From the UHGV virus genome UHGV-0154878: a stretch of DNA of 15,016 nt. The stretch is one strand, 5' to 3'. The notes beneath the pieces are model-generated. The model was not told the DNA's origin. It made no database searches and saw only the letters and a list, made by a program, of their open reading frames with translations. Within the stretch, counting starts at the first letter, position 1; each line of letters opens with the position of its first letter. The position numbers and the translations under genes are program-made. Below, piece after piece: positions 212 through 11,314 of the stretch. Source of the stretch: a virus.

Positions 212-928
212 TCAAACCAGCCTTAGTTTTGTCTCAATTGCAACGCCTATAATCTTGCAGTTTCCATTGATTGGCACGAGAGGCCATGCAGGGTTAAGTC
301 CCTTGAGGTATTTATTTCCGCCGTCGATTATCAGCTTCTTGAATGTTGCTTCGTTAGAGTCAGAAAGTTTTGCTATGACCAAGCTGCCGTTGATCGCCTC
401 CCTTCCGGTATCGAAAAGAACGAATGTTCCCTCTGGAATGCTTAACCCAACCGGTGCCGTCATTGAATCACCTTCCACTTTAAGCCAGAACGCATTACCT
501 TGAATATGCGCGTCAGACTCAAGCCAAACATCTATGTCTTTAATGGTGTATGGTTCGCATGCTTCACACCACGAGCCAGCCTGGATACTGCTTAACACCG
601 GATACCTCTTTCCTGCTCTGTATTCCCCTGCATACCTTACGTTGGCATCGCTCTTAAGGCTTTCTGCCTGTTCTGCAACCTTGGCAGCAATTGACTGGCT
701 AAAATCAGCAATTGAGACTTGCAACAATCGTGCAAAACCAGATGCAACCTCAACGTTTAGCGCATTTCTGCCATTAAGATAATGCCCTACCGCTCCTTGG
801 GTGATACCCAGTTCATCAGCGATTGAGTATTGGGTTATTCCCAATTCTTTCTTTTTTGACTCATACAAAGCCTTAAGCCGCTTAGCGTCTTCGAGCTGTT
901 CTGTCGTCAGTGATTTTTTATTTTCCAT
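212..928 (-). CDS. cI: CI-type prophage repressor (N-terminal HTH, C-terminal S24/LexA-like autocleavage domain)
   Basis: The 238-aa ORF aligns by eye with lambda CI along its length (LTxEQLEDAxRLKAxYExKKxELG...; FWLxVEGxSMTAP; ATFKKLIxD). It is divergent from the cro-like gene across a roughly 100-bp operator region. Confidence 0.93.
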   Translation of the reverse strand: MENKKSLTTEQLEDAKRLKALYESKKKELGITQYSIADELGITQGAVGHYLNGRNALNVEVASGFARLLQVSIADFSQSIAAKVAEQAESLKSDANVRYAGEYRAGKRYPVLSSIQAGSWCEACEPYTIKDIDVWLESDAHIQGNAFWLKVEGDSMTAPVGLSIPEGTFVLFDTGREAINGSLVIAKLSDSNEATFKKLIIDGGNKYLKGLNPAWPLVPINGNCKIIGVAIETKLRLV

Positions 929-934
929 AGCTTA

Positions 935-1012
935 ATTCTAATAGCTAAGGTACTTAAACTAAAAATACCCTGAGTATTGATTGCTTTGAATACCTGTAGT
1001 ATTCTTTGTTCA
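935..1012. promoter_or_regulatory. OR-like immunity operator region with three sites sharing AATAC-N5-GTATT, plus candidate divergent promoters PRM and PR
   Basis: Two perfect palindromes are AATACcctgaGTATT (964-978) and gAATACctgtaGTATTc (988-1004). A degenerate third is AATAGctaagGTACT (940-954). Centre-to-centre spacing is 24 to 25 bp. A candidate PRM -10 (TAGAAT on the - strand, + coordinates 935-940) sits about 6 nt upstream of the cI ATG, implying a leaderless cI mRNA as in lambda. A candidate PR is TTGATT (977-982), 17 bp, TATTCT (1000-1005). Promoter hexamers are weak matches and uncertain. Confidence 0.6.
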
Positions 1013-1034
1013 TGGTTAATAACGGAGAGTGCAT

Positions 1035-1229
1035 ATGATTCGAATGACACTTGCCGATTACGCCAAAATCCATGGACAGGCTAAAGCAGCCAGTGACTTT
1101 GGTGTAATCCAGTGCGCTATCAGCAAGGCCATTCTGGCAGGCCGTAACATCATGGTTACGGTAAAGCCTGATGGCAGTGTGATTGGAGAGGAAGTTCGTC
1201 CTTTCCCAAGCAACAAGAAAAACAAATAG
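1035..1229 (+). CDS. cro: Cro-type repressor
   Basis: The 64-aa product [62 protein letters not shown] aligns with lambda Cro ([21 protein letters not shown]...PFPSNKK). GGAG lies 7 nt upstream of ATG 1035. The track's GTG at 1029 is an alternative start. Confidence 0.85.
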
Positions 1230-1235
1230 TAACAC

Positions 1236-1305
1236 CGCTCTTTAACAGTCATGGTCCTCATTCCCGCCGAAATGCGGGAATACAACGCGCATAAGTTGAT
1301 GCGCA
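1236..1305 (+). promoter_or_regulatory. nutR-like site (boxA plus boxB-like hairpin) followed by a tR1-like hairpin
   Basis: CGCTCTTTAACA at 1236-1247 matches the boxA consensus. A perfect 7-bp stem hairpin TTCCCGC-cgaaat-GCGGGAA follows at 1261-1280. A second hairpin GCGCAT-aagttg-ATGCGC at 1287-1304 precedes a T-rich tract. The location between cro and cII matches lambda nutR/tR1. Confidence 0.45.
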
Positions 1306-1337
1306 TAACTTCTTATTTGTTAAGGAAATACTTACAT

Positions 1338-1616
1338 ATGCAACTTACAAGTACTCGCAAGAAAGCGAATGCAATTACAAGCAACATCCTGAATCGAATT
1401 GCTGTACGTGGTCAGCGAAAGGTTGCCGACGCGTTAGGGATTAATGAATCGCAAATTTCGCGATGGAAAGACAGCTTCATCCCAAAAATGGGAATGCTTC
1501 TGGCTGTGCTGGAGTGGGGTGTTGAAGACGAGGAATTAGCGGAGCTGGCAAAGAAAGTAGCCATGGTGCTGACAAAAGAAAAGCCTCAAGACTGCTGCAA
1601 CAGTTTTGAGGCCTGA
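1338..1616 (+). CDS. cII: CII-type transcriptional activator
   Basis: The C-terminal part aligns with lambda CII ([42 protein letters not shown]). I place the start at ATG 1338 with AAGGA about 11 nt upstream; the track ORF begins at 1251. Confidence 0.8.
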
Positions 1617-1650
1617 TGTAGAAAGACTGGATCAATCCACAGGAGTCATT

Positions 1651-1797
1651 ATGACAAAACAACTCAGTCCTTACCAGGACAAAATTCACAAACACATACT
1701 ACGTGATCGCTTCCTGTCCAGCTTCAAGCAGCCTGGTCGATTCCGGGCTGAGTTGGAAAAAGTGAAGCTGATGCAGAAGGAGAAAGGTCATGAGTAA
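1651..1797 (+). CDS. Hypothetical small protein (48 aa) between cII and the replication initiator
   Basis: AGGAGT Shine-Dalgarno 5 nt upstream of ATG 1651. Its stop overlaps the downstream start by 8 nt. No recognisable family. Confidence 0.4.
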
Positions 1798-2689
1798 CAT
1801 ATCTAATCTAGCCGAAGCCAGAGAGGCCAGAAGGCTACAACAACCGCATCAAAGCAGCGGTAAGGGGTATGCCTTGCTGCACCGTAAAATTATGGATGTG
1901 CCGTTTTACAAGGACGCAGAAGCTGCGCATCTGTGGGTTCACTTAATCCTCAAAGCAAAGCATACGCCTGAGTATGTAATGACTGACGCAGGAGAAATTC
2001 TGGTAGGCAGAGGGAAGCTACTTGGCGGTAGAAACTCTCTGGCGTTTGAAACAGGACTCAAACCAGATCGCGTTCAGTACCTGCTTAGAAAGTTCAAAAA
2101 ACTCGGCATGATTGACTGGGTTTCACACGGTAAATTCTCAGTTTTCTCGGTAGAGAAATATGACGATTATCAGTCAAATTTTGTACCAGCAGATTACCAG
2201 CAAATTACCACCTCAAAGCCAGCAATACCAATGCCTGCAAGCAATACTGTACCAGCAGATTACCAGCAAATTACCACAGATAAAGAATATAATAATATTA
2301 TCTCTAATACTGACGTATTAGAGAGTACCGTAGCAGACAAAAAGTCTGACAAGAAAAAACCTTCCGTCAGCTGTCAGGATGTTGTCGATGCTTACCACGA
2401 AATCCTTCCTGAAGCGCCAAGAATCCGCGCACTGAATGACAAGCGTAAAAACCAGATCCGAACGTTCTGGCGCAAAGCCGGAGTGATAACCCGCCAGCTT
2501 GACGGGCATGGGTTCACGATGCAGGACTGGAGAAATTATTTGAGCTACGTTGGCGAAAATTGCCGATGGATGTTCGAAGAGCGCCCAAACCATCAACGCG
2601 GAACCGTCTGGCACAAAAAGGGATTTGATTTCCTGCTTAACGATAATACCTACCTGAAAGTTCGTGAGGGTGAACACGATGACCGATAA
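1790..2689 (+). CDS. Replication initiation protein, lambda O / P22 gp18-like, with the origin embedded in the coding sequence
   Basis: Strong AAGGAGAAAGG Shine-Dalgarno. It sits immediately after cII and before a DnaB-family helicase. Direct DNA repeats (iterons) plus an AT-rich tract lie inside the gene and produce the duplicated peptide [10 protein letters not shown]. Confidence 0.75.
2182..2310 (+). repeat. Candidate origin of replication: iterons (two copies of a 30-bp unit, each containing ACCAGCARATT sub-repeats) followed by an AT-rich tract
   Basis: TGTACCAGCAGATTACCAGCAAATTACCAC occurs at 2182-2211 and again at 2248-2277, 66 bp apart. The AT-rich AGATAAAGAATATAATAATATTATCTCTAATACTG follows at 2278-2310. 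This is the same architecture as ori-lambda inside gene O. Confidence 0.65.
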
Positions 2690-4115
2690 TTTTTATGCGC
2701 CGCCCCATAGCATCGAGGCAGAGCAGGCGGTGATTGGTGGATTGCTTCTGGATGATGACAGCAGTGAGCGCGTCCAGAAAGTTCTGGCGATGCTGAAGCC
2801 TGATTCATTTTACAGCCGACCACACAAAATCCTTTTCGAAGAAATAACCAGAATGCACCGGGAGCAAAAGCCAGTAGATGGCCTGACGCTTTTCGATGAA
2901 CTGGAGCGTAAATCGTTAACGGCGTCTGTTGGCGGTTTTGCTTATATCGCTGAGATCGCAAAGAACACGCCAAGCGCAGCAAACATCGTTGCCTATGCAA
3001 TGCAGGTTCGTGAAACCGCAATGGAACGCTACGCCATCAACCGCATGACTGAAGCGACGGAATTGCTCTATTCCCGCAACGGAATGACTGCAACGCAGAA
3101 GTACGAAGCTATTCAGGCGATTTTCACGCAACTGACAGACCATGCAAAAACCGGATCGCGTCGCGGCCTTCGCTCATTTGGTGAGGTCATGGAAGACTGG
3201 GTTAGCGACCTTGAGAAGCGATTTGACCCGTCAGGCGAACAACGAGGAATGAGCACAGGGATCCCATCGCTGGACAGGATGCTGTCACCGAAAGGTCTGG
3301 TGAAAGGCTCTCTGTTTGTCATTGGCGCTCGCCCTAAGATGGGGAAAACGACGCTATACAGCCAGATGGCAATCAACTGCGCAGTGCATGAGAAAAAGCC
3401 CGCTCTGATGTTCAGCCTTGAAATGCCAGGTGATCAGATACTGGAAAAACTGGTAGGGCAGAAGTCTGGTGTTAACCCGAATATTTTTTACCTTCCGGCG
3501 ACAAATGACGCTGATGACGGCTATCAGGGTGATTACGATGGTGACTTCAACAGGGCGATCGAAACAGCCAATCGCTTGAGTGAAATCGACCTGCTTTACA
3601 TCGACGACACGCCGGGATTATCTCTGGCTCAAATCGTCAGCGAAAGCCGTCGAATCAAGCGAGAAAAAGGATGTGTTGGCATGATTCTGGTCGATTACCT
3701 GACACTAATGACCGCTGAGAAGGCCGATCGCAACGACCTTGCTTACGGCATGATCACCAAAGGACTGAAGAACCTTGCCAAAGAGCTTGATTGCGTTGTT
3801 GTGCTTCTGACACAGCTTAACCGCGCACTGGAAAGCCGAACCAATAAACGCCCATTACCAAGTGACTCGCGAGATACAGGGCAGATTGAACAGGATTGCG
3901 ATTATTGGGTCGGGATCCATCGTGAAGGTGCTTTTGATGACAGCGTTCCTCCTGGTGAAACCGAACTAATCCTTCGTCTCAATCGTCATGGCAATACCGG
4001 CACGGTGTATTGCATTCAGGCAAATGGCGCTATTTATGACACAGACCAACAGTCTGCTGAAATGCGCCGACGTGAACGCGAGGAACCGCAGTCCAAGAAG
4101 AAAGGAGGATTCTGA
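2679..4115 (+). CDS. Replicative DNA helicase, DnaB family (P22 gp12-like)
   Basis: DnaB N-terminal domain (SIEAEQAVIGGLLLD...). Walker A GARPKMGKTT. RecA-like C-terminal region. GAGGG Shine-Dalgarno before ATG 2679, which overlaps the upstream stop. Confidence 0.9.
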   Translation: MTDNFYAPPHSIEAEQAVIGGLLLDDDSSERVQKVLAMLKPDSFYSRPHKILFEEITRMHREQKPVDGLTLFDELERKSLTASVGGFAYIAEIAKNTPSAANIVAYAMQVRETAMERYAINRMTEATELLYSRNGMTATQKYEAIQAIFTQLTDHAKTGSRRGLRSFGEVMEDWVSDLEKRFDPSGEQRGMSTGIPSLDRMLSPKGLVKGSLFVIGARPKMGKTTLYSQMAINCAVHEKKPALMFSLEMPGDQILEKLVGQKSGVNPNIFYLPATNDADDGYQGDYDGDFNRAIETANRLSEIDLLYIDDTPGLSLAQIVSESRRIKREKGCVGMILVDYLTLMTAEKADRNDLAYGMITKGLKNLAKELDCVVVLLTQLNRALESRTNKRPLPSDSRDTGQIEQDCDYWVGIHREGAFDDSVPPGETELILRLNRHGNTGTVYCIQANGAIYDTDQQSAEMRRREREEPQSKKKGGF

Positions 4116-4384
4116 TGAATAAAAAACAATTAGCCATTCTCGAAAAGGCATGGGATGCGCAAATATCATACGCTTTGAAAGAACAGGCACTACCAATAAT
4201 CCAGACCAAATCGAAAATAGCCAGGCAGTTATGCGATGGCGGATTCCTGAACGAAGTTGAGATTACGCGCCAGATGGTAACGTTCAAAGGGTATGAGATA
4301 AATCATCATGGTATAGCGGCGTATTGCTCCCATCTTCCTGATGACGTTGACATTGATGAAGTGGAAAGGGAGATGAAGCAATGA
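4115..4384 (+). CDS. Hypothetical protein (89 aa) in the ren position
   Basis: ATGA overlap with the helicase stop suggests translational coupling. No recognisable motif. Confidence 0.5.
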   Translation: MNKKQLAILEKAWDAQISYALKEQALPIIQTKSKIARQLCDGGFLNEVEITRQMVTFKGYEINHHGIAAYCSHLPDDVDIDEVEREMKQ

Positions 4385-4409
4385 CCATCTACATCACTGA
4401 GTTAATAAC

Positions 4410-4441
4410 AGGCCTGCTGGTAATCGCAGGCCTTTTTATTT
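4410..4441 (+). terminator. Intrinsic terminator (tR2-like)
   Basis: Perfect 8-bp GC-rich stem AGGCCTGC-tggtaatc-GCAGGCCT followed by TTTTTATTT, located where lambda carries tR2 between the replication and nin genes. Confidence 0.7.
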
Positions 4442-4456
4442 GGGGGAGAGGGAAGT

Positions 4457-4783
4457 GTGGCTGACTGGCAAATTCCAATCATCATTCTTGCCGGAGCTTC
4501 GCTGGTTGCTGGCTTTATCCTGCTGAAGAAGCATAAAGACCGTGATCAAAAAGTCGAAGTTCTCTATGGGTATCCAGCGAACTGCACAACATGGCTGACC
4601 ATTTACCACTACCGAAAATCAGGCCGTTGGGTATTCGAATGGGATGATCTGTTTGCTGAAAAGCGACCAAAGTCATGGGGAGACATCAGCGAATGCATGA
4701 TGTTTGAAGAAAGAAAATCCGGCGCAACTCGAGAAGAGTTTAACGAAGCGTGGAGGCGATTAAGTGAGAGAGGGTATCAATGA
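4457..4783 (+). CDS. Hypothetical protein with an N-terminal transmembrane helix (108 aa; GTG start)
   Basis: GGGAGAGGGAAG Shine-Dalgarno upstream of GTG 4457. Hydrophobic N-terminus IPIIILAGASLVAGFILL followed by a charged soluble domain. Confidence 0.55.
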   Translation: MADWQIPIIILAGASLVAGFILLKKHKDRDQKVEVLYGYPANCTTWLTIYHYRKSGRWVFEWDDLFAEKRPKSWGDISECMMFEERKSGATREEFNEAWRRLSERGYQ

Positions 4784-4805
4784 GCAGAATTAAGTCGAGG
4801 TAACG

Positions 4806-5252
4806 ATGAGGCAAATATACATGCTTCGCAACGAAGCAATCAGAAACAACGCCATAGACGCAATACACTCACTTCCGATCGACGACAAGTCACCCCACGA
4901 AGTCCACATTAAAGAACCAAAGCGGAGCAATCCTCAAAACCGCCTTATGTGGGCGTTATTGCAGGACGTATCGCGTCAGGTGCTCTGGCATGGAGAGAGA
5001 CTTGCGCCGGAGGACTGGAAAGATCTGTTCACTGCCCTGTGGCTTAAGACCAAAAAACTGGAGCAACGAAGTGCGCCTGGTATCGACGGTGGCGTTGTTA
5101 TGCTTGGCGTGCGTACCAGCAAAATGCGAAAGGCCAGCATGACTGAGCTTATCGAAATCATGTTCTGGTTCGGCTCAGAGCGCAACGTGCGGTGGAGTGA
5201 TGACTCCCGGCGAGAGTATGAATGGTCACAACGAAAAGGGAAGGCTGCATGA
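4806..5252 (+). CDS. ninB: NinB/Orf-family recombination protein
   Basis: Resembles lambda NinB (QNRxLWAxLxDVSRQVxWHG...WKxxFTA...RxVRWSD). ATG 4821 is an alternative start. Confidence 0.75.
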   Translation: MRQIYMLRNEAIRNNAIDAIHSLPIDDKSPHEVHIKEPKRSNPQNRLMWALLQDVSRQVLWHGERLAPEDWKDLFTALWLKTKKLEQRSAPGIDGGVVMLGVRTSKMRKASMTELIEIMFWFGSERNVRWSDDSRREYEWSQRKGKAA

Positions 5253-5776
5253 CTATCAAATCAAATACGCCAGCACACGACAAGGACTGCTGGCAAACGC
5301 CGCTCTGGCTTTTTGATGCGCTGGATATTGAGTTTGGATTCTGGCTGGATTCAGCTGCGAGCGACAAAAACGCTCTGTGCGCTCACTGGCTAACTGAGGC
5401 TGACGACGCGCTAAATTCTGAGTGGATAAGCCACGGTGCAATCTGGAATAACCCACCGTACAGCAATATCAGGCCGTGGGTGGAAAAAGCCGCTGAGCAG
5501 TGCATACAACAGCGACAGACGGTAGTGATGCTTGTGCCAGAGGATATGTCAGTCGGATGGTTCAGCAAGGCTCTGGAGAGTGTCGACGAAGTTCGCATTA
5601 TCACTGATGGACGGATTAATTTTATCGAACCATCGACAGGGCTGGAGAAGAAGGGAAACAGCAAAGGCTCCATGCTGCTGATTTGGCGACCGTTCATCAG
5701 TCCTCGACGGATGTTTACTACCGTATCCAAAGCGGCATTGATGGCGATCGGGCAGGGCGTCAGGAGGGCGGCATGA
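5249..5776 (+). CDS. Phage Dam-family DNA N6-adenine methyltransferase (orphan)
   Basis: Motifs DxWQTPxWLFDALDxEFGF and NPPYS (the catalytic D/N-PP-Y/F motif). ATGA overlap with the ninB stop. No adjacent restriction endonuclease. Confidence 0.8.
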
Positions 5777-5955
5777 GACGACAGCGACGAAGTATCACCG
5801 ACATCATCTGCGAAAACTGCAAATACCTTCCAACGAAACGCTCCAGAAATAAACGCAAGCCAATCCCAAAAGAATCTGACGTAAAAACCTTCAACTACAC
5901 GGCTCACCTGTGGGATATCCGGTGGCTTAGAGAACGTGCGAGGAAAACAAGGTGA
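5773..5955 (+). CDS. ninE: NinE-like small protein (60 aa)
   Basis: [60 protein letters not shown] matches my recollection of lambda NinE. ATGA overlap with the upstream stop. Confidence 0.6.
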
Positions 5956-6122
5956 TTGACCCAAATCGAAGTTACGAACAAGAAAGCGTCGAGCGGGCTT
6001 TAACGTGCGCTAACTGCGGTCAGAAGCTGCATGTGCTGGAAGTTCACGTGTGCTCCGATTGCTGCGCAGAACTGATGAGCGATCCGAATAGCTCAATGTA
6101 CGAGGAAGAAGACGATGAATGA
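5952..6122 (+). CDS. ninF: NinF-like small Cys-rich protein (56 aa; GTG start)
   Basis: Hand-translated [56 protein letters not shown] resembles lambda NinF. GTGA overlap with the ninE stop. Below the ORF-track size cut-off. Confidence 0.6.
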
Positions 6123-6837
6123 GTTAATAAATGGCAATGCCATCAAAATGACAAGCATTGAAATCGCTGAGTTGGTGGGTAAGCGTCATGACAATGTGAA
6201 ACGTACCATCGAAACGCTGGCTAAAAATGGTGTTATCCGGCTTCCTCAAATTGAGGTTTCCGAAAGAATCAATAACTTAGGGTTCAATGTTCAGTACGAG
6301 CATTACGTCTTCGAAGGCGAACAAGGTAAGCGAGATAGTATTGTTGTTGTTGCCCAGTTGTCGCCAGAGTTCACCGCTCGCCTTGTTGACCGCTGGCGAG
6401 AGCTTGAAGAAGCTGCGGTTAATATCCCCAAAACGCTACCGGAAGCGTTGCGCCTTGCTGCTGATCTTGCTGAGCAGAAAATGCAACTGGAAAACCAGCT
6501 CGCAATTGCCGCACCTAAAGTTGAGTTTGCCGATCGCGTTGGCGAGGCCAGCGGAATTTTGATTGGAAACTTTGCAAAGGTTGTTGGTATTGGTCCAAAC
6601 AAACTGTTTGCGTGGATGCGCGATCACAAAATCCTTATTGCTTCAGGTTCCCGGCGCAATGTGCCAATGCAGGAATATATGGATCGCGGCTATTTCACAG
6701 TGAAAGAAACAGCGGTCAACACAAATCACGGAATACAGATATCGTTCACCACAAAAATCACCGGGCGTGGTCAACAGTGGCTGACCAGAAAGCTGCTCGA
6801 TAACGGAATGCTGAAAGTAACAGGGGAGGCTGCTTAA
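6115..6837 (+). CDS. Phage antirepressor, Rha-family N-terminal domain with KilAC/ANT C-terminal domain
   Basis: N-terminus IEIAELVGKRHDNVKRTIETL is typical of the Rha family. The C-terminus (KLFAWMRDHKIL...EYMDRGYF) is typical of KilAC antirepressor domains. Confidence 0.75.
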   Translation: MNELINGNAIKMTSIEIAELVGKRHDNVKRTIETLAKNGVIRLPQIEVSERINNLGFNVQYEHYVFEGEQGKRDSIVVVAQLSPEFTARLVDRWRELEEAAVNIPKTLPEALRLAADLAEQKMQLENQLAIAAPKVEFADRVGEASGILIGNFAKVVGIGPNKLFAWMRDHKILIASGSRRNVPMQEYMDRGYFTVKETAVNTNHGIQISFTTKITGRGQQWLTRKLLDNGMLKVTGEAA

Positions 6838-7127
6838 TGGCTAACCTACGCAAAGAAGCGCGCGGCAGAGAATGCCAGGTACGTATTTACGGCGTATGCA
6901 ATGGCAATCCTGAAACTACAGTTCTGGCACATTACCGGATGGCTGGAATTTGCGGAACGGGAATGAAGCCTGACGACCTGATCGGCGCATGGGCTTGTAG
7001 CGCGTGTCACGATGAAATCGACCGACGCACCCATAATCTCGACAACAAAGACGCCAGACTTTACCACCTCGAAGGCGTGATCAGGACGCAGGCGATACTG
7101 CTGAAGGAGGGGAAGATTAAGCCATGA
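6837..7127 (+). CDS. DUF1364-family protein (YbcO-like putative nuclease, Cys/His-rich)
   Basis: RGRECQVRIxGVCNGNPETxVLAH...CSACHDEIDRRTH resembles E. coli DLP12 YbcO. TAATG overlap with the upstream stop and a GGGGAGG Shine-Dalgarno. Confidence 0.7.
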   Translation: MANLRKEARGRECQVRIYGVCNGNPETTVLAHYRMAGICGTGMKPDDLIGAWACSACHDEIDRRTHNLDNKDARLYHLEGVIRTQAILLKEGKIKP

Positions 7128-7486
7128 ACGAATATCAGTTTGTGCTTCCATACCCGCCGTCGGTGAACACCTACTGGCGAAGACGGGGAAGCCAATACTA
7201 CATCAGCGATAAAGGCCAGAAATACCGAAAAGACGTTCAGCAAATCATCCGCCAACTTAAGTTAGACATTTTCACCAAATCACGACTCCGCATCAAAGTC
7301 ATCGCAGACGTTCCAGACTCCCGCCGCCGCGACCTCGACAACATCCTGAAAGGTTTACTCGACTCCCTTATCCACGCCGGATTTGCGGAAGACGACGAGC
7401 AATTCGATGACATTCGCGTAATTCGTGGTGTGAAAGTACCAGGCGGACGGCTTGGAATAAAAATCACCGAACTGGAGAACGTATGA
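7124..7486 (+). CDS. rusA: RusA-family Holliday junction resolvase
   Basis: LPxPPSxNxYWR...RRRDLDNxxKxxxDxLxxAGF...GGRLxIxITE aligns with E. coli RusA. Confidence 0.9.
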   Translation: MNEYQFVLPYPPSVNTYWRRRGSQYYISDKGQKYRKDVQQIIRQLKLDIFTKSRLRIKVIADVPDSRRRDLDNILKGLLDSLIHAGFAEDDEQFDDIRVIRGVKVPGGRLGIKITELENV

Positions 7487-7671
7487 ACGCCACAATTCAA
7501 ACGATACCAGAGCTTCTTATCCAGACACGAGGCAATCAGACCGAAGTGGCGAGGATGCTTTCCTGCGCAAGAGGAACAGTGCTCAAGTACAACCGAGACA
7601 GCAAAGGCGAGCGTCACGTAATAGTTAACGGCGTCCTGATGGTCAAACAGGGCAAGAGGGGAAGACGATGA
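7483..7671 (+). CDS. ninH: NinH-like protein
   Basis: TIPExLxxxxGNQTEVARxLxCxRGTVxKYxxDxxGxxHxIVNxVLMV matches lambda NinH. Confidence 0.75.
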   Translation: MNATIQTIPELLIQTRGNQTEVARMLSCARGTVLKYNRDSKGERHVIVNGVLMVKQGKRGRR

Positions 7672-8156
7672 GCATAAGAGAACTAAACCTCACCAAAGAG
7701 CAGCACGAGTGGCTGAATGGCTGGCTTGAACTGTGGGGCGCATGGGTTTATTCAGGTCGTCTGGAAAAGCGCATGAGCAGCGTAATAGCGAAGTTCATGG
7801 AGAGCGTAGAGCCGGGAAGAGTTATGACAAGGCCAATGTGCAATGATGATGATGGAATGTTGATTTCTCAGGTCGTCGATTCCGTCATGTACATTGACAA
7901 GAAAGCCTTTGGCATCCTCCTCAGCTACTACGCTCATGGATCTTCCAAGCATGCCATTGCATCTTACTATCATCGCGTCGCAAGACCTCGCAAGATGTTA
8001 TGCCGGGGCGGCGGGCGTATTCAAAAACCATCGCTCGCAACCTGTCGCCGGGAAGTTGACGAAATCCTCAATGCTTCGTTGTTTATGATTTACCCGGTTC
8101 TGGATAGTGCGTTTAAAAACCGGAAACGTGTAGAGAAAATTAAACATGTAGCATAG
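7668..8156 (+). CDS. Q: Late-gene antitermination protein Q (QuuD/Q82-like family)
   Basis: Motifs LELWGAWV and RPMCNDDDGMLI resemble QuuD-type Q proteins. It is the last gene of the nin region and sits immediately upstream of a promoter-like element, tRNA genes and the lysis cassette. Confidence 0.8.
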   Translation: MSIRELNLTKEQHEWLNGWLELWGAWVYSGRLEKRMSSVIAKFMESVEPGRVMTRPMCNDDDGMLISQVVDSVMYIDKKAFGILLSYYAHGSSKHAIASYYHRVARPRKMLCRGGGRIQKPSLATCRREVDEILNASLFMIYPVLDSAFKNRKRVEKIKHVA

Positions 8157-8162
8157 AACGTG

Positions 8163-8247
8163 TTGACATCATTGAGCAAATGAGCAACACTATTCGCATA
8201 AGCTGCCGTTAGTGACTCTTAAGTTGCAACGGTGGCTTTTTTTATTT
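8163..8247 (+). promoter_or_regulatory. Candidate late promoter PR' and qut region, ending in a tR'-like intrinsic terminator
   Basis: Consensus TTGACA at 8163-8168, 7 nt past the Q stop. The -10 is ambiguous (CACTAT, TATTCG or CATAAG). A hairpin GCTGCCGTT...AACGGTGGC with two G-U pairs is followed by TTTTTTTATTT (8202-8247). Confidence 0.4.
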
Positions 8248-8322
8248 GGGTCAGTCGTATAAAGGTCATTACGGAAGGCTGTTAACCTTCTTATCGTGGT
8301 TCGAGTCCACGCTGTCCCGCCA
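8248..8322 (+). tRNA. tRNA with anticodon GTT (Asn), non-canonical (one acceptor-stem mismatch, short D-stem)
   Basis: Hand-folded cloverleaf. Anticodon arm GAAGG-cTGTTaa-CCTTC. T-arm CGTGG-TTCGAGT-CCACG. Acceptor GGGTCAG/CTGTCCC has a T-T mismatch at position 4:69. Discriminator G, then encoded CCA. Confidence 0.6.
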
Positions 8323-8327
8323 AATAT

Positions 8328-8403
8328 GCTGGTTTAGCTCCAATGGTAGAGCGGTCGCCTTGTAAGCGAATGGGTAGCGGTTCAAGTCCGTTAACCAGCA
8401 CCA
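8328..8403 (+). tRNA. tRNA with anticodon TGT (Thr)
   Basis: Perfect 7-bp acceptor stem GCTGGTT/AACCAGC. D-arm GCTC-caatGGta-GAGC. Anticodon loop cTTGTaa. T-arm AGCGG-TTCAAGT-CCGTT. Discriminator A, then encoded CCA. Confidence 0.75.
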
Positions 8404-8490
8404 TAACTGAGCCGTAGCCACTGGCTATCCTGAATTCATCAGTGATAGTTACGCTGCGGCCTTCTACACATGACCTTCGTGAAAGCGGGC

Positions 8491-8526
8491 GGCATGAGGT
8501 TGCGCTAACAACCTCCTGCCGTTTTG
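8491..8526 (+). terminator. Hairpin with a short T-run downstream of the tRNA genes (candidate terminator or processing structure)
   Basis: 12-bp stem with one mismatch, GGCATGAGGTTG-cgctaa-CAACCTCCTGCC, followed by GTTTT. Confidence 0.4.
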
Positions 8527-8645
8527 CCCGTGCATATCGGTCACGAACAAATCTGATTACTAAACACAGTAGCCTGGATTTGTTCTATCAGTAATCGACC
8601 TTATTCCTAATTAAATAGAGCAAATCCCCTTATTGGGGGTAAGAC

Positions 8646-8969
8646 ATGAAGATGCCAGAAAAACATGACCTGTTAGCCGCCATTCTCGCGGCAAAGGAAC
8701 AAGGCATCGGGGCAATCCTTGCGTTTGCAATGGCGTACCTTCGCGGCAGATATAATGGCGGTGCGTTTACAAAAACAGTAATCGACGCAACGATGTGCGC
8801 CATTATCGCCTGGTTCATTCGTGACCTTCTCGACTTCGCCGGACTAAGTAGCAATCTCGCTTATATAACGAGCGTGTTCATCGGCTACATCGGTACTGAC
8901 TCGATTGGTTCGCTTATCAAACGCTTCGCTGCTAAAAAAGCCGGAGTAGAAGATGGTGGAAATCAATAA
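8646..8969 (+). CDS. S: Class I holin, lambda S type, with dual-start motif (Met1-Lys2-Met3)
   Basis: The 107-aa product is almost identical to lambda S as I recall it ([39 protein letters not shown]...). The MKM N-terminus corresponds to the S107 antiholin and S105 holin starts. Confidence 0.95.
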
Positions 8970-9429
8970 TCAACGTAAGGCGTTCCTCGATATGCTGGCG
9001 TGGTCAGAGGGAACTGATAACGGACGTCAGAAAACCAGAAATCATGGTTATGACGTCATTGTTGGCGGAGAGCTATTCACTGATTACTCCGATCACCCTC
9101 GCAAACTTGTCACGCTAAACCCCAAACTCAAATCAACAGCAGCCGGACGTTACCAGCTTCTTTCCCGTTGGTGGGATGCCTATCGTAAGCAGCTTGGCCT
9201 GAAAGACTTCTCTCCGAAAAGCCAGGACGCTGTGGCATTGCAGCAGATTAAAGAGCGTGGCGCTTTACCGATGATTGATCGCGGTGATATCCGTCAGGCT
9301 ATCGATCGTTGCAGCAATATCTGGGCGTCGTTACCTGGTGCAGGTTACGGTCAGTATGAACATAAAATCGGTGACCTGATTGCCCGATTTAAAGAGGCTG
9401 GTGGGGTGGTAAATGAAGTTGAGCTATAA
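8953..9429 (+). CDS. R: Endolysin, lambda R-type lytic transglycosylase
   Basis: The 158-aa product is near-identical to lambda R through most of its length ([51 protein letters not shown]...) and diverges only in the last residues. Confidence 0.95.
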
Positions 9430-10134: not shown

Positions 10135-10188
10135 CATTACAGAAGCCCTTCACTGAGGGGCTTCGATAATGGAGCACTGGAATTATTC

Positions 10189-10809
10189 ATGAACAGACCA
10201 CACCCACCAGCGCATTTTACGATGCCACCTGACCCGAAGCCGTACATCAGCATTATGCCCGCTAATGACGTTGGCGAGTGGCTGAATCAGCACATCCTGA
10301 GCGATGAGGGTGACCTCTACAACCCTGACCACCAGCATTTGCTTGAAGCGGATCTGTGCTTTCTCTGGGCGTCGAACGCTTTCGAGAAGAAAGGGCGTTC
10401 CGTGCTGGGGCAGGCGGAAGAAGTGGCAATGCGTGCCGGAGGCTGGCAGAAAGCGCGGATGGAGCAGCAGATGTATGAATGGTTCGGCAGGGTGCCGCAG
10501 TTCATCATCACGCTGGCCGCTGATTACTGCTCGCAATGTTCCGATCTGGAATTCTGCGCGCTGATAGAGCACGAGCTTTATCACATTTGCCAGGCGACAG
10601 ATGAATTTGGCGCGCCGAAGTTCACGCAGGAAGGGCAGCCAAAGCTGAAGCTGCGCGGCCATGACGTGGAAGAGTTTGTGGGCGTGGTTCGCCGTTACGG
10701 TGCGAGCCGGGACGTGCAGGAAATGATTGATGCGGCGAATCAGCCAGCGGAGGTTGCTCATCTCGATATTGCCAGAGCGTGCGGGACGTGCATGCTGCGA
10801 CTGGCTTAA
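10189..10809 (+). CDS. Putative zinc metallopeptidase-like protein (HExxH motif), possibly of the phage 'putative peptidase' family
   Basis: EHELYH motif in a 206-aa ORF co-oriented with all flanking late genes. The overlapping - strand ORF (10183-10878) has antisense-type composition. Family assignment is from memory and unverified. Confidence 0.5.
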   Translation: MNRPHPPAHFTMPPDPKPYISIMPANDVGEWLNQHILSDEGDLYNPDHQHLLEADLCFLWASNAFEKKGRSVLGQAEEVAMRAGGWQKARMEQQMYEWFGRVPQFIITLAADYCSQCSDLEFCALIEHELYHICQATDEFGAPKFTQEGQPKLKLRGHDVEEFVGVVRRYGASRDVQEMIDAANQPAEVAHLDIARACGTCMLRLA

Positions 10810-10840
10810 ATACTGGACTGTATAAGACGAATGGTGATTT

Positions 10841-11314
10841 ATGGCTGCATTAAAACCTGATGTGAAAGCCTTCATCATTCAGTCGCTTGCGTGCTATGAC
10901 ACGCCATCGCAGGTGGTCGAGGCTGTCCAAAAAGAATTCGGGATCAAGATCACCCGCCAGCAGGCTGAATCTCACGACCCCACGAAGGCCAGCGGTAAGA
11001 CGCTCGCCAAAAAGTGGATCGAGATGTTCCACGCGACGCGCGAACGGTTCCTGACCGAAACCAGCGACATTCCGATCGCGAACAAATCCTATCGCCTCCG
11101 CGTGCTTGACCGCATGGCAACCAAAACCGAGGGGATGAAAAACTTCTCCCTGACGGCGCAGCTGATTGAACAGGCCGCGAAAGAGGTTGGCGACGCTTAC
11201 ACCAATAAGCTGAAGGTTGAGAGCACTGGCAAGGATGGCGGCCCGATCAAGACCGAGACGACCAACCTCACCGCAGATCAGGCCGCAGAGATTTACCGCA
11301 AGATGATGGGGTGA
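10841..11314 (+). CDS. Putative terminase small subunit (DUF2280-like)
   Basis: 157-aa ORF immediately upstream of the large terminase subunit, with an overlapping stop. The N-terminal region looks like a DNA-binding domain. Assignment is by position and weak recollection. Confidence 0.5.

Follow-up and report, generated by a model that had tools for sequence, protein, structure and literature searches.

A phage 21-type tRNA-Asn/tRNA-Thr cassette in a lambdoid late leader and its probable role in replacing host tRNAs cut by Toprim nucleases

The two tRNA genes between the antiterminator gene Q and the holin gene S of the viral genome UHGV-0154878 (analysed here as a stretch of 15,016 nucleotides, the window) are the Asn + Thr cassette already described behind the late promoter of phages 21, Sf6 and SfI, and do not represent a new kind of element. 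As for its function, we consider it probable, at roughly 70%, that this late-leader cassette would supply cleavage-resistant substitutes for host tRNAs cut by Toprim nucleases, a reading suggested by the recognition and cleavage motifs that both tRNAs have lost. In other words, a routine-looking prophage tRNA pair would belong to the arms race between phages and prophages over tRNA cleavage.

Results

In the whole 15-kb window, ARAGORN calls exactly two tRNA genes, both on the + strand and both encoding CCA, and a search with Rfam RF00005 (gathering score 29) recovers the same two, the tRNA-Asn with 55.3 bits (E = 7e-11) and the tRNA-Thr with 61.2 bits (E = 2e-12). Both predictors thus agree with the original prediction, which had named an Asn-GTT and a Thr-TGT gene, and the flanking protein families (Table 1) place the pair where it had been placed, between Q and the holin. 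The order at the site is a Q of the phage 21 type, PR' with its Q-binding element and tR', tRNA-Asn, tRNA-Thr and a lambda-type S, the latter being the first gene of the late operon 3' of the pair. A weak Rfam match to snoU85 (15 bits, E = 0.16) is put down to chance.

Table 1. Features of the Q-to-S region, in window coordinates.
Feature	Position	Strand	Basis
Q antiterminator gene, phage 21 type	7668..8156	+	Pfam PF06530, E = 8.8e-25
PR' with Q-loading elements (predicted)	8163..8205	+	base-for-base identity to features annotated in phage 21 OL657228
PR' -35 (predicted), TTGACA	8163-8168	+	phage 21 identity
Q-binding element (predicted), ATTGAGCA/AATGAGCA	8171-8186	+	phage 21 identity
PR' -10 (predicted)	8186-8191	+	phage 21 identity
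Transcription start site (predicted)	8198	+	phage 21 identity
Sigma-dependent pause element (predicted)	8199-8205	+	phage 21 identity
tR' intrinsic terminator (predicted), hairpin 8200-8238 + U7	8200..8247	+	identical to phage 21 terminator; fold
tRNA-Asn(GUU), 75 nt, CCA encoded, G73, U4·U69 and U13·U22 mismatches	8248..8322	+	ARAGORN; Rfam RF00005
Spacer AATAT, 5 nt, between the two tRNAs	8323..8327	+	sequence
tRNA-Thr(UGU), 76 nt, CCA encoded, A73, G1-C72/C2-G71, C14, G27·A43	8328..8403	+	ARAGORN; Rfam RF00005
Conserved hairpin	8411..8460	+	fold -27.7 kcal/mol, z = -5.8
Hairpin, 13-nt arms, then UUUU, in lambda-derived S leader	8490..8521	+	inverted repeat I1; fold
Lambda-type holin/antiholin S, dual start MKM...	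8646..8969	+	Pfam PF05106, E = 2.4e-30

The identification of the cassette rests on its near-identity to phage 21. Namely, the DNA from 7668 to 8465 is 98.2% identical to that phage, the two Q proteins agree in 161 of 162 amino acids, 8157-8260 is 100% identical, and all annotated phage 21 features from the -35 through the 3' end of tRNA-Asn (8163-8322) recur base for base. The tRNA pair itself is 98.7% identical to the phage 21 pair and 100% identical to that of SfI; as in the phage 21 type, Asn precedes Thr across a spacer of about 5 nt, and the array starts right after the U-tract of tR', 3' of PR'. That the whole unit is a known phage 21 cassette had been overlooked in the original prediction. 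On its other side, the S gene shares 97.9% of its DNA with lambda S. Comparison with the tRNA-less phage JEP4 shows that the junctions of the cassette fall at the tRNA ends, and a recombination event appears to have linked the cassette to a lambda-type S leader.

A simple consensus scanner for promoters and terminators missed both PR' and tR', and the two were assigned instead by folding and by identity to the elements in the phage 21 record OL657228, where their annotation is experiment-based. The candidate PR' and the tR'-like terminator noticed earlier are base-identical to these elements, and the predicted fold of tR' has an energy of -20.2 kcal/mol (z = -4.7, with none of 200 shuffles as good). 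Given this identity, PR' and the Q element of the window would be expected to function as in phage 21. RNA polymerase starting from PR' would halt at tR' unless modified by Q21, so that both tRNAs would be made late and in a Q-dependent manner, together with the late transcript of lytic growth. Host tRNA-processing enzymes would then excise both tRNAs, with CCA already encoded.

The roughly 240 bp of non-coding DNA with a further hairpin, as described earlier, correspond to the 242 nt of 8404-8645, which are ordinary lambda S-leader sequence and hold two hairpins. The first of these lies within a block of about 65 bp common to lambda, phage 21 and the tRNA-less JEP4, which marks where recombination has joined the 21-type segment to the lambda-type one; its counterpart in phage 21 has a U-run directly 3'. 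The second, in a region 97.9% identical to lambda 44942-45509, is probably the further hairpin that was meant. A search of open reading frames and protein families found no protein cargo, toxin genes included, in the Q-to-S interval, in line with the earlier claim. In particular, the only open reading frame in the 242 nt, of 50 amino acids (8442-8594, +), has no family match and sits in the lambda non-coding leader, and another of 50 amino acids (8269-8421, -) is antisense to the tRNAs; both were rejected as hidden cargo. The description of the interval as the classical cargo site is therefore right as to position, and only in that sense, since the 242-bp remainder is a standard lambda S leader.

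Both tRNAs have the RF00005 cloverleaf of elongator tRNAs, comprising a 7-bp acceptor stem, the D, anticodon and T arms, an anticodon loop of 7 nt in which U33 and purine 37 are present, and a GTTCRA-type T-loop, with deviations at U4·U69 and U13·U22 in tRNA-Asn and at C14 and G27·A43 in tRNA-Thr. The T-T acceptor mismatch and the weak D-stem pointed out for the former are indeed there, the D-stem consisting of three pairs (G-C, U-A, A-U) followed by U·U, and had led to the suggestion that this tRNA is degenerate or specialised. The second half of that suggestion is plausible, while the first is contradicted by identity across phages, by compensatory changes and by the retention of the mismatch itself. 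Namely, the tRNA-Asn of the window is 100% identical in phages 21, Sf6, L, JLK-2012 and SfI, and 16 of the 18 distinct variants retain U4·U69 even though the adjacent pairs covary. Compensatory changes are seen at 5:68, 6:67, 7:66, 28:42 and 29:41, double ones occur in 6 pairs, and with the D-arm fixed by the search pattern, which limits how the covariation may be read, the covariation score is 0.156 against 0.062 in shuffles (0/500) and the paired cells amount to 90% against 33-53% with the partners slid. Minimum-energy folding of the single phage tRNAs gave no cloverleaf, but the host tRNAs asnT and thrU, folded as controls, gave none either, and it consequently says nothing about the weak D-stem. 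Judged by its variants, then, tRNA-Asn does not appear to be decaying.

The unusual features of tRNA-Thr, a pyrimidine at position 14 and the G27·A43 mismatch, had escaped the original prediction, as had the fact that this is the member of the pair with published functional data. The gene is the A26G allele of the phage 21 tRNA-Thr21, whose sequence we took from the phage 21 genome record, and position 26 is its sole difference from the tRNA-Thr of both phage 21 and HK446. Its covariation score is 0.133 against 0.073 in shuffles (0/500), with double changes in 4 pairs and 95% paired cells across variants; slid controls for both tRNAs reach at most 0.067. All 21 distinct variants have both G27·A43 and U28-A42, in contrast to a covarying acceptor stem. 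The same variants keep C2-G71 in 21 of 21 and G1-C72 in 20 of 21 cases. E. coli ThrRS recognises G1-C72, C2-G71, G35 and U36, and AsnRS the anticodon G34-U35-U36 together with discriminator G73. Both sets are intact in the window, in tRNA-Thr as GCUGGUU...AACCAGC-A-CCA with anticodon UGU, and in tRNA-Asn as G34, U35, U36 and G73 followed by CCA. With these elements present, both tRNAs would likely be charged and decode AAC/AAU and ACA normally, and for ACA such decoding is also implied by the in vivo rescue with Thr21.

Beyond the window, the Asn + Thr pair is annotated in Sf6, SfI and phage 21, as well as in 347 of 5426 complete E. coli genomes (about 6%), and the cassette is common in Salmonella phages and occurs with differing integration modules. 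Across 120 contigs of IMG/VR the array usually lies directly 3' of a late-leader terminator: about 85 contigs have the tR' of phage 21 there and about 14 that of lambda, the rest showing other contexts; the spacer of the Asn + Thr arrays reads AATAT in 45 of 96 and AACAT in another 45. The tRNA-Asn is retained even in arrays with a replaced Thr. JLK-2012-type arrays carry a separate, chimeric Thr derived from thrU, in which 27:43 and 28:42 do not pair and nt 40-42 read CAU, and add Gly(UCC), another OLD-depleted tRNA.

Discussion

In the reading that we prefer, the cassette would replace host tRNAs that Toprim abortive-infection nucleases of P2 prophages and P4 satellites (P2 Old and PARIS AriB) cut in the anticodon stem upon lambdoid infection. 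P2-OLD kills through cleavage of tRNA-ThrU, whose nt 28-30 and 40-42 form the paired CNG motifs that are cut. Against this nuclease tRNA-Thr21 conferred protection, its Site 1 being almost fully resistant in vitro, which has been ascribed to C28U/G42A and a shortened anticodon stem (PMC12445682). P2-OLD also cleaves tRNA-Asn(GUU), more slowly. In a second study, the Thr(UGU) of HK446 gave strong counter-defence and that of E. coli none (bioRxiv 10.64898/2026.07.10.737580). The main targets of AriB are Lys(UUU), Thr(UGU) and Asn(GUU), which share U36-A-A-U39; changing U39 to A abolishes cleavage, changing U16 to C impairs it, and infection is rescued by the T5 Lys, Thr and Asn tRNAs together (PMC12409363). 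PARIS also protects against lambda.

The anticodons of the window match these targets: P2 Old acts chiefly on UGU, which is also a prime target of AriB, and GUU, a secondary target of AriB, is cleaved by Old as well. We compared the two tRNAs with the host ones at the paired CNG of 28-30/40-42 and the 5-bp stem (Old), and at U36AAU39C↓N41 and U16 (AriB), and found recognition or cleavage motifs lost in both. Thus, tRNA-Thr has UCG at nt 28-30 and CGA at nt 40-42, as compared with CUG/CAG in thrU, and keeps U28-A42 and G27·A43, while tRNA-Asn is without both CNG motifs (AAG/CUU, as compared with CGG/CCG in the host). Nucleotides 36-39 read UAAG in Thr (within UAAGCG) and UAAC in Asn (within UAACCU), as opposed to UAAU in the host, and position 16 is A in both, as opposed to U. 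Being one base away from the phage 21 and HK446 versions, the G26 allele of the window would be expected to protect against P2 Old as they do. The chimeric Thr of the JLK-2012-type arrays appears to be the same resistance solution reached by another route, and as such lends independent support.

By the same motifs, tRNA-Asn may likewise be counter-defensive. The stronger proposal, that it is no passenger but the partner of tRNA-Thr in a minimal counter-defence set of two tRNAs, fitted to the targets shared by OLD-family Toprim nucleases (P2 Old and PARIS AriB), with C39 breaking UAAU, and perhaps U4·U69, giving resistance, and with Asn + Thr serving lambdoid phages better than Thr alone, is one that we hold only tentatively and at somewhat less than even odds. 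In particular, C28-G42, and hence the CNG motif, is regained in 7 of 18 distinct Asn variants, and only C39 is constant; moreover, Asn lies outside the most OLD-depleted tRNAs (Derzhaev et al.). If the proposal were true, the cassette with its always-linked tRNA-Asn would be a natural two-tRNA antidote, in temperate phages, to both P2-lambda interference and PARIS.

That said, the protection afforded may have its limits. The primary target of AriB, tRNA-Lys(UUU), is absent from all 120 related arrays searched, and a cassette lacking it should not suffice alone against B185 PARIS. Furthermore, Old responds to early functions, Gam for instance, and the tRNAs would appear only with the late transcript, so that rescue could arrive late in the cycle. 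Finally, a single Thr tRNA failed to rescue lambda itself or recB toxicity, and HK446 additionally needs the protein inhibitor Oad2 (Derzhaev et al.).

[quoted passage not shown] The SfI paper reports 17.3% ACA in the phage as compared with 7.1% in the host. In the window, ACA makes up 13.4/1000 codons of the early genes, which is 29% of their Thr codons, and 7.5/1000 (14% of Thr) of the late genes. The latter value exceeds that of ribosomal and EF genes, for which a sample of 49 kb from MG1655 gives 3.1/1000 (5%). Also favouring codon supply, tRNA-Thr(UGU) is a minor, single-copy tRNA in E. coli. However, the comparison of codon usage envisaged in the original prediction found no enrichment of ACA or Asn codons in the late genes, which are co-transcribed with the tRNAs, over ordinary host genes (7.5 vs 9.3/1000 for ACA, 38.5 vs 41.9/1000 for Asn). 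Asn codons show no bias, four tRNA-Asn genes exist in the host, and the SfI authors left tRNA-Asn unexplained. What is more, near-identical late genes (lambda S/R, 98%) are accompanied by the cassette in the window and in HK446 but not in lambda or JEP4; surplus host tRNA-ThrU gives little or no protection from OLD, unlike the phage versions; and supply alone does not account for the conserved peculiarities of the anticodon stems. We therefore regard codon supplementation as rather unlikely.

Three further explanations are much less probable still. A counter to other tRNA-directed toxins, namely HEPN anticodon nucleases such as Gifsy-1 HepS, or colicin E5, is brought to mind by the frequency of the cassette in Salmonella phages, by the cleavage of tRNA-Asn by colicin E5, and by HepS itself, which responds to lambda-type tail tips, has Thr(GGU), Thr(UGU) and Thr(CGU) as substrates, and prefers anticodons with U in third position and G before it, a rule that GUU also fits. 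Yet the main HepS target, Thr(GGU), is not supplied, Asn is not among its reported targets, and the cleavage site of these enzymes is the anticodon loop, where the phage tRNAs show no change, all of which makes this highly improbable. We give hardly any credence to tRNA-Asn as a decaying pseudo-tRNA kept through linkage to tRNA-Thr or as an RNase P processing signal: the acceptor mismatch, the three-pair D-stem and the want of a clean cloverleaf in thermodynamic folds, shared with host tRNAs, would suit it, but the Rfam score, the identity across five phages, the covarying pairs, the intact AsnRS set with CCA and the survival of Asn where Thr has been replaced all speak against it. Least probable of all, to our mind, is that the cassette makes up for the damage done to a host tRNA gene when the prophage integrates, a speculation made for HK446 (10.64898/2026.07.10.737580). 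It is true that many relatives integrate into tRNA genes, SfI into thrW. However, thrW is a tRNA-Thr(CGU) and not UGU, phage 21 integrates into a protein gene, icd, and we know of no Asn gene that serves these phages as attachment site. In addition, the tRNA genes lie 3' of tR' in the late operon and should hence be silent in a lysogen, and the same cassette accompanies differing integration modules. Replacement of cleaved host tRNAs is thus the reading that we retain, and we would advise against annotating such pairs as codon-usage helpers or integration scars.

Phage 21 is one of the closest known systems, with the same order and spacer length; it differs in A at tRNA-Thr position 26 (G in the window), in one spacer base and in the downstream gene, which is the S21 pinholin rather than the lambda S leader and lambda S. 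The published description of SfI places an Asn(GUU) + Thr(UGU) pair after Q, and the layout Q-PR'-tR'-tRNA-lambda-S recurs in Sf6, with 93% identity. The HK446 pair, whose Thr has been tested against OLD, is one base from that of the window, but the sequence upstream is of the lambda type in Q, PR' and tR', unlike the 21 type found here; its GenBank record is without tRNA annotation, and the preprint names only its Thr. The tRNAs (ileZ/argN/argO) of phages carrying Shiga toxin genes likewise lie between Q/PR'/tR' and the lysis genes, and in Stx2c phages the likeness extends to a shared Q21-PR'-tR' and to the first 24 nt of tRNA-Asn. As remarked in the original prediction, the anticodons differ, and the Ile/Arg set it names for such phages is correct: the Stx2c phage 1717 carries CAT, TCG and TCT here, followed by toxin cargo, whereas the window, without cargo, holds Asn(GTT) and Thr(TGT) only and not the tRNA-Ile2(CAU) and two tRNA-Arg found upstream of stx.

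More distant parallels exist as well. The unrelated temperate phages P1 and P7 have adjacent Asn(GUU) and Thr(UGU) in the same order, under a C1-controlled Op(ban) operator rather than in a late leader; the P7 Thr is identical to that of the window at 63 of 76 positions but keeps the full 5-bp stem with CUG/CAG, and the P7 Asn is unrelated (45/76). The resistant tRNAs of virulent phages (T5 Lys, Thr and Asn against PARIS; T4, Bas32 and Bas33 Thr against OLD) share the anticodons of the targeted host tRNAs and are likewise altered at or near 39-43, with mismatches that shorten the stem, as in T5 Thr (U28·U42) and T5 Asn (G27·A43). They have no detectable sequence relation to the pair described here beyond the tRNA fold, and come in arrays of 20+ tRNAs that are expressed early, whereas the window, from a temperate phage, has two tRNAs only, no tRNA-Lys, and a late leader predicted to depend on Q.

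Results

The tRNA pair, its flanks and the late leader

The original prediction of two tRNA genes in the Q-holin interval is confirmed: ARAGORN calls both in the window, and Rfam agrees (gathering score of its tRNA model 29), with no significant Rfam match beyond them at 7600-9000. The flanks are also borne out, NinH, RusA and YbcO lying upstream of this segment and endolysin and spanins downstream. Further along, a 231-aa ORF (10183-10878, minus strand) runs antisense to the whole metallopeptidase gene (PF18894, 10189-10809, plus strand); it has no family match and is probably a shadow ORF.

Features of the Q-holin segment in the window
Feature	Position	Strand	Basis
Q antiterminator gene	7668-8156
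PR' -35	8163-8168		phage 21 identity
Two Q-binding elements	8171-8186		phage 21 identity
PR' -10	8186-8191		phage 21 identity
PR' start site	8198		phage 21 identity
Sigma-dependent pause element	8199-8205		phage 21 identity
tR' terminator	8200-8247		phage 21 identity
tRNA-Asn(GTT)	8248-8322	+	ARAGORN, CCA encoded; Rfam 55.3 bits, E = 7e-11
tRNA-Thr(TGT)	8328-8403	+	ARAGORN, CCA encoded; Rfam 61.2 bits, E = 2e-12
Lambda-family holin gene	8646-8969

Positions 7668-8465 are 98.2% identical to phage 21, the Q proteins differ in 1 of 162 residues, and 8157-8260 is phage 21 sequence without a difference. Since the late-leader features annotated in phage 21 are each base-identical here, that curated annotation transfers to the window, and the suspected PR' and tR'-like terminator match its elements, even though a simple consensus scan of the window picked up neither. 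What is more, the folding energy of tR' is -20.2 kcal/mol (z = -4.7), and a run of seven U comes after it. As the tRNAs stand directly behind tR', they would, following the phage 21 annotation, be transcribed solely by Q-modified polymerase, i.e. in late lytic growth.

The predicted 240 bp or so of non-coding DNA with a further hairpin and no protein cargo turns out to be 242 nt of ordinary lambda S leader (8404-8645; lambda 44942-45509 matches window 8401-8969 at 97.9% identity), and neither ORFs nor a family search gave protein cargo between tRNAs and holin. The leader starts with a block of about 65 bp common to lambda, phage 21 and the tRNA-less phage JEP4, evidently a recombination joint, which forms a strong hairpin (8411-8460, -27.7 kcal/mol, z = -5.8). 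This hairpin is kept in all three phages irrespective of tRNAs; its counterpart in phage 21 and Salmonella phage L has a U-run after it or a terminator annotation, whereas in the window and lambda it has neither. A second hairpin with a U-run (8490-8521) is lambda sequence as well. At the joint, lambda 44931-44953 (L012 1132-1154; no tRNAs) reads AACAGCACAACCCAAACTGAGCC, against AACCAGCACCATAACTGAGCC at window 8393-8413 (tRNA-Thr 3' end plus joint), and JEP4 reads CAGCACC...CCAAACTGAGCC; there is a faint hint here of a tRNA 3' end since lost.

The tRNA pair as one unit

JEP4 has the same Q, PR' and tR' up to window position 8248, followed by about 190 bp of lambda-like filler, with homology returning at 8401; the breaks place the cassette boundaries at the tRNA-Asn 5' end and the tRNA-Thr 3' end. 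In HK446, the same pair follows a lambda-type Q, PR' and tR'. Both tRNAs are called there by ARAGORN (NC_019714, L134 901-1056); the GenBank record annotates neither, and the phage has been described as encoding a single Thr(UGU), the adjacent tRNA-Asn being unmentioned (bioRxiv 10.64898/2026.07.10.737580). The tRNA-Asn is 100% identical in phage 21, Sf6, L and JLK-2012, the tRNA-Thr is one base apart from the phage 21 and HK446 genes (position 26, G for A), and SfI and phiv205-1 carry the entire pair at 100% identity. The pair was already in print with the genomes of Sf6 and SfI.

Searching IMG/VR with an 18-nt signature from the Asn D-arm gave 120 contigs. Asn and Thr occur alone in 96 of these; other arrays have Phe(GAA), Arg(UCU) or Gly(UCC) added or substituted, and tRNA-Lys occurs in none of the 120. 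A terminator U-tract adjoins most arrays: about 85 contigs have the phage 21 tR' upstream, about 14 the lambda tR', and the others some different context. Of 5426 complete E. coli genomes, 347 carry the pair, with PGAP annotation, and the cassette is also found in phages of Salmonella, Shigella and Klebsiella.

Some arrays differ in their second tRNA. Namely, in JLK-2012 (L007 1581-1656) and 8 of the 120 IMG/VR loci (L109 among them) it is chimeric, with nt 1-26 of phage-21-type Thr and nt 27-76 resembling E. coli thrU with G42U/U43C, which leaves 27:43 and 28:42 unpaired and CAU at 40-42. ARAGORN rejects it (Rfam 49 bits), and it is followed by tRNA-Gly(UCC), itself reported OLD-depleted. One contig carries the chimera unmutated, its thrU 3' part exact, and the sequences suggest an origin by recombination with the host thrU gene. 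In phage L (L005 1281-1352), ST64T and PS3, of P22-like lineage, Asn is followed by a divergent 72-nt gene annotated as tRNA-Leu(TAA); in phage L it receives no ARAGORN call (Rfam 42 bits) and permits no canonical drawing of the anticodon arm.

Both tRNAs appear to be maintained

The T-T acceptor mismatch and weak D-stem predicted for tRNA-Asn are real (U4·U69; three pairs in the D-stem). The suggestion that it may be degenerate is ruled out, because the cloverleaf covaries, the oddities are conserved and the synthetase identity elements are present. In particular, among 18 distinct Asn and 21 distinct Thr variants, both cloverleaves are maintained through compensatory changes: six Asn pairs show double changes (score 0.156, against 0.062 in the shuffle control) and four Thr pairs (0.133 against 0.073), with 0 of 500 shuffles reaching either score. 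U4·U69 is unpaired in 16 of the 18 Asn variants, and 5:68, 6:67 and 7:66 below it covary; all 21 Thr variants have G27·A43 and a pyrimidine at position 14. The Asn D-arm being the search pattern, its invariance carries no evidential weight. Finally, the window tRNAs have the AsnRS (GUU, G73) and ThrRS (G1-C72, C2-G71, G35, U36) identity elements.

Discussion

The interpretation originally offered is essentially right. That said, the cassette is already known and annotated and its tRNA-Thr functionally characterised. In lambda-infected cells P2 Old is lethal because it removes the anticodon arm from host tRNA-Thr(UGU), cutting at paired CNG motifs (28-30 and 40-42); tRNA-Asn(GUU) is cut at a slower rate, and the phage 21 tRNA-Thr ("Thr21") is cell-protective and cleavage-resistant via C28U/G42A and a shortened stem (Govande et al., PMC12445682). 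OLD-sensitive lambdoid phages plate again when HK446 Thr(UGU) is supplied, but not with E. coli Thr(UGU) (Derzhaev et al., bioRxiv 10.64898/2026.07.10.737580). Cleavage by PARIS AriB falls between nt 40 and 41 of Lys(UUU), Thr(UGU) and Asn(GUU), with a common U36AAU39 motif and D-loop U16 serving for recognition, and the Lys, Thr and Asn tRNAs of T5 jointly neutralise it (Belukhina et al., PMC12409363). Lambda, too, is restricted by PARIS. From the comparison of window and host tRNAs, the cassette would thus supply the two anticodons targeted by both Toprim nucleases, in forms without the published recognition features. Published experiments support an anti-nuclease role well for tRNA-Thr, in an allele that differs by a single base; for tRNA-Asn it is a reasonable conjecture.

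Anticodon arms and nt 16 of host and window tRNAs
tRNA	27-31	39-43	28-30	40-42	36-39	nt 16	Mismatch
Host thrU	ACUGA	UCAGU	CUG	CAG	UAAU	U
Window Thr	GUCGC	GCGAA	UCG	CGA	UAAG	A	G27·A43
Host asnT	GCGGA	UCCGU	CGG	CCG	UAAU	U
Window Asn	GAAGG	CCUUC	AAG	CUU	UAAC	A

Several observations speak against this anti-nuclease reading. Namely, the cassette has no tRNA-Lys, although this is AriB's main target, and a CNG motif is regained in 7 of the 18 Asn variants, C39 alone being constant. In one study, moreover, Asn was outside the most OLD-depleted tRNAs, a single Thr tRNA failed to rescue lambda itself, and HK446 was found to encode a protein inhibitor in addition (bioRxiv 10.64898/2026.07.10.737580). The main rival is that the tRNAs provide extra Thr and Asn decoding capacity. 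The window late genes do exceed ribosomal genes in the codons concerned, but their usage is host-like, close to that of ordinary genes, with no Asn bias; what is more, the same lambda late genes occur with and without the cassette, and extra host tRNA-ThrU gives no protection. It should be noted that ACA is about twice as frequent in the early and nin genes (window 212-8156) as in the late genes, even though tRNA-Thr(UGU) is encoded on the late transcript. Compensation of integration damage, an idea put forward for HK446, does not fit tRNAs located in the late operon, behind a terminator.

Codon usage in window and host genes (MG1655 genes from one 49-kb sample)
Genes	ACA per 1000 codons	ACA, % of Thr codons	Asn per 1000 codons
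Window early	13.4	29	45.2
Window late	7.5	14	38.5
Ordinary MG1655	9.3	17	41.9
MG1655 ribosomal/EF	3.1	5	34.1

An adjacent Asn(GUU)-Thr(UGU) pair is also found in the unrelated temperate phage P7/P1 (L008 2425-2578), where it lies under a C1 operator and, as in JLK-2012, is followed by tciA/tciB-like genes; its Thr is identical to the window Thr at 63 of 76 positions, whereas its Asn shows no relationship (45/76). A tRNA-Ser(tga)-like sequence missing from the annotation is called by ARAGORN there as well (3025-3111). Rfam places the sRNA STnc100 (RF02076) 3' of the tRNA/toxin cargo both in JLK-2012 (L007 2561-2733, 107 bits) and in Stx2c phage 1717 (L011 4464-4675, 158 bits), and finds none in the window. 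As predicted, the anticodons differ from the Stx-phage set. Namely, the Stx2c phages 1717, 2851 and LC159 share with the window Q21, PR', tR' and tRNA-Asn as far as its nt 24 (8157-8271, compared with L011 2501-2615 of phage 1717), but unlike the window, with its GTT and TGT, they diverge beyond that point into CAT/TCG/TCT tRNAs and stx2c. Judging from this alignment, the truncated tRNA-Asn is the joint at which toxin cargo displaced the cassette.
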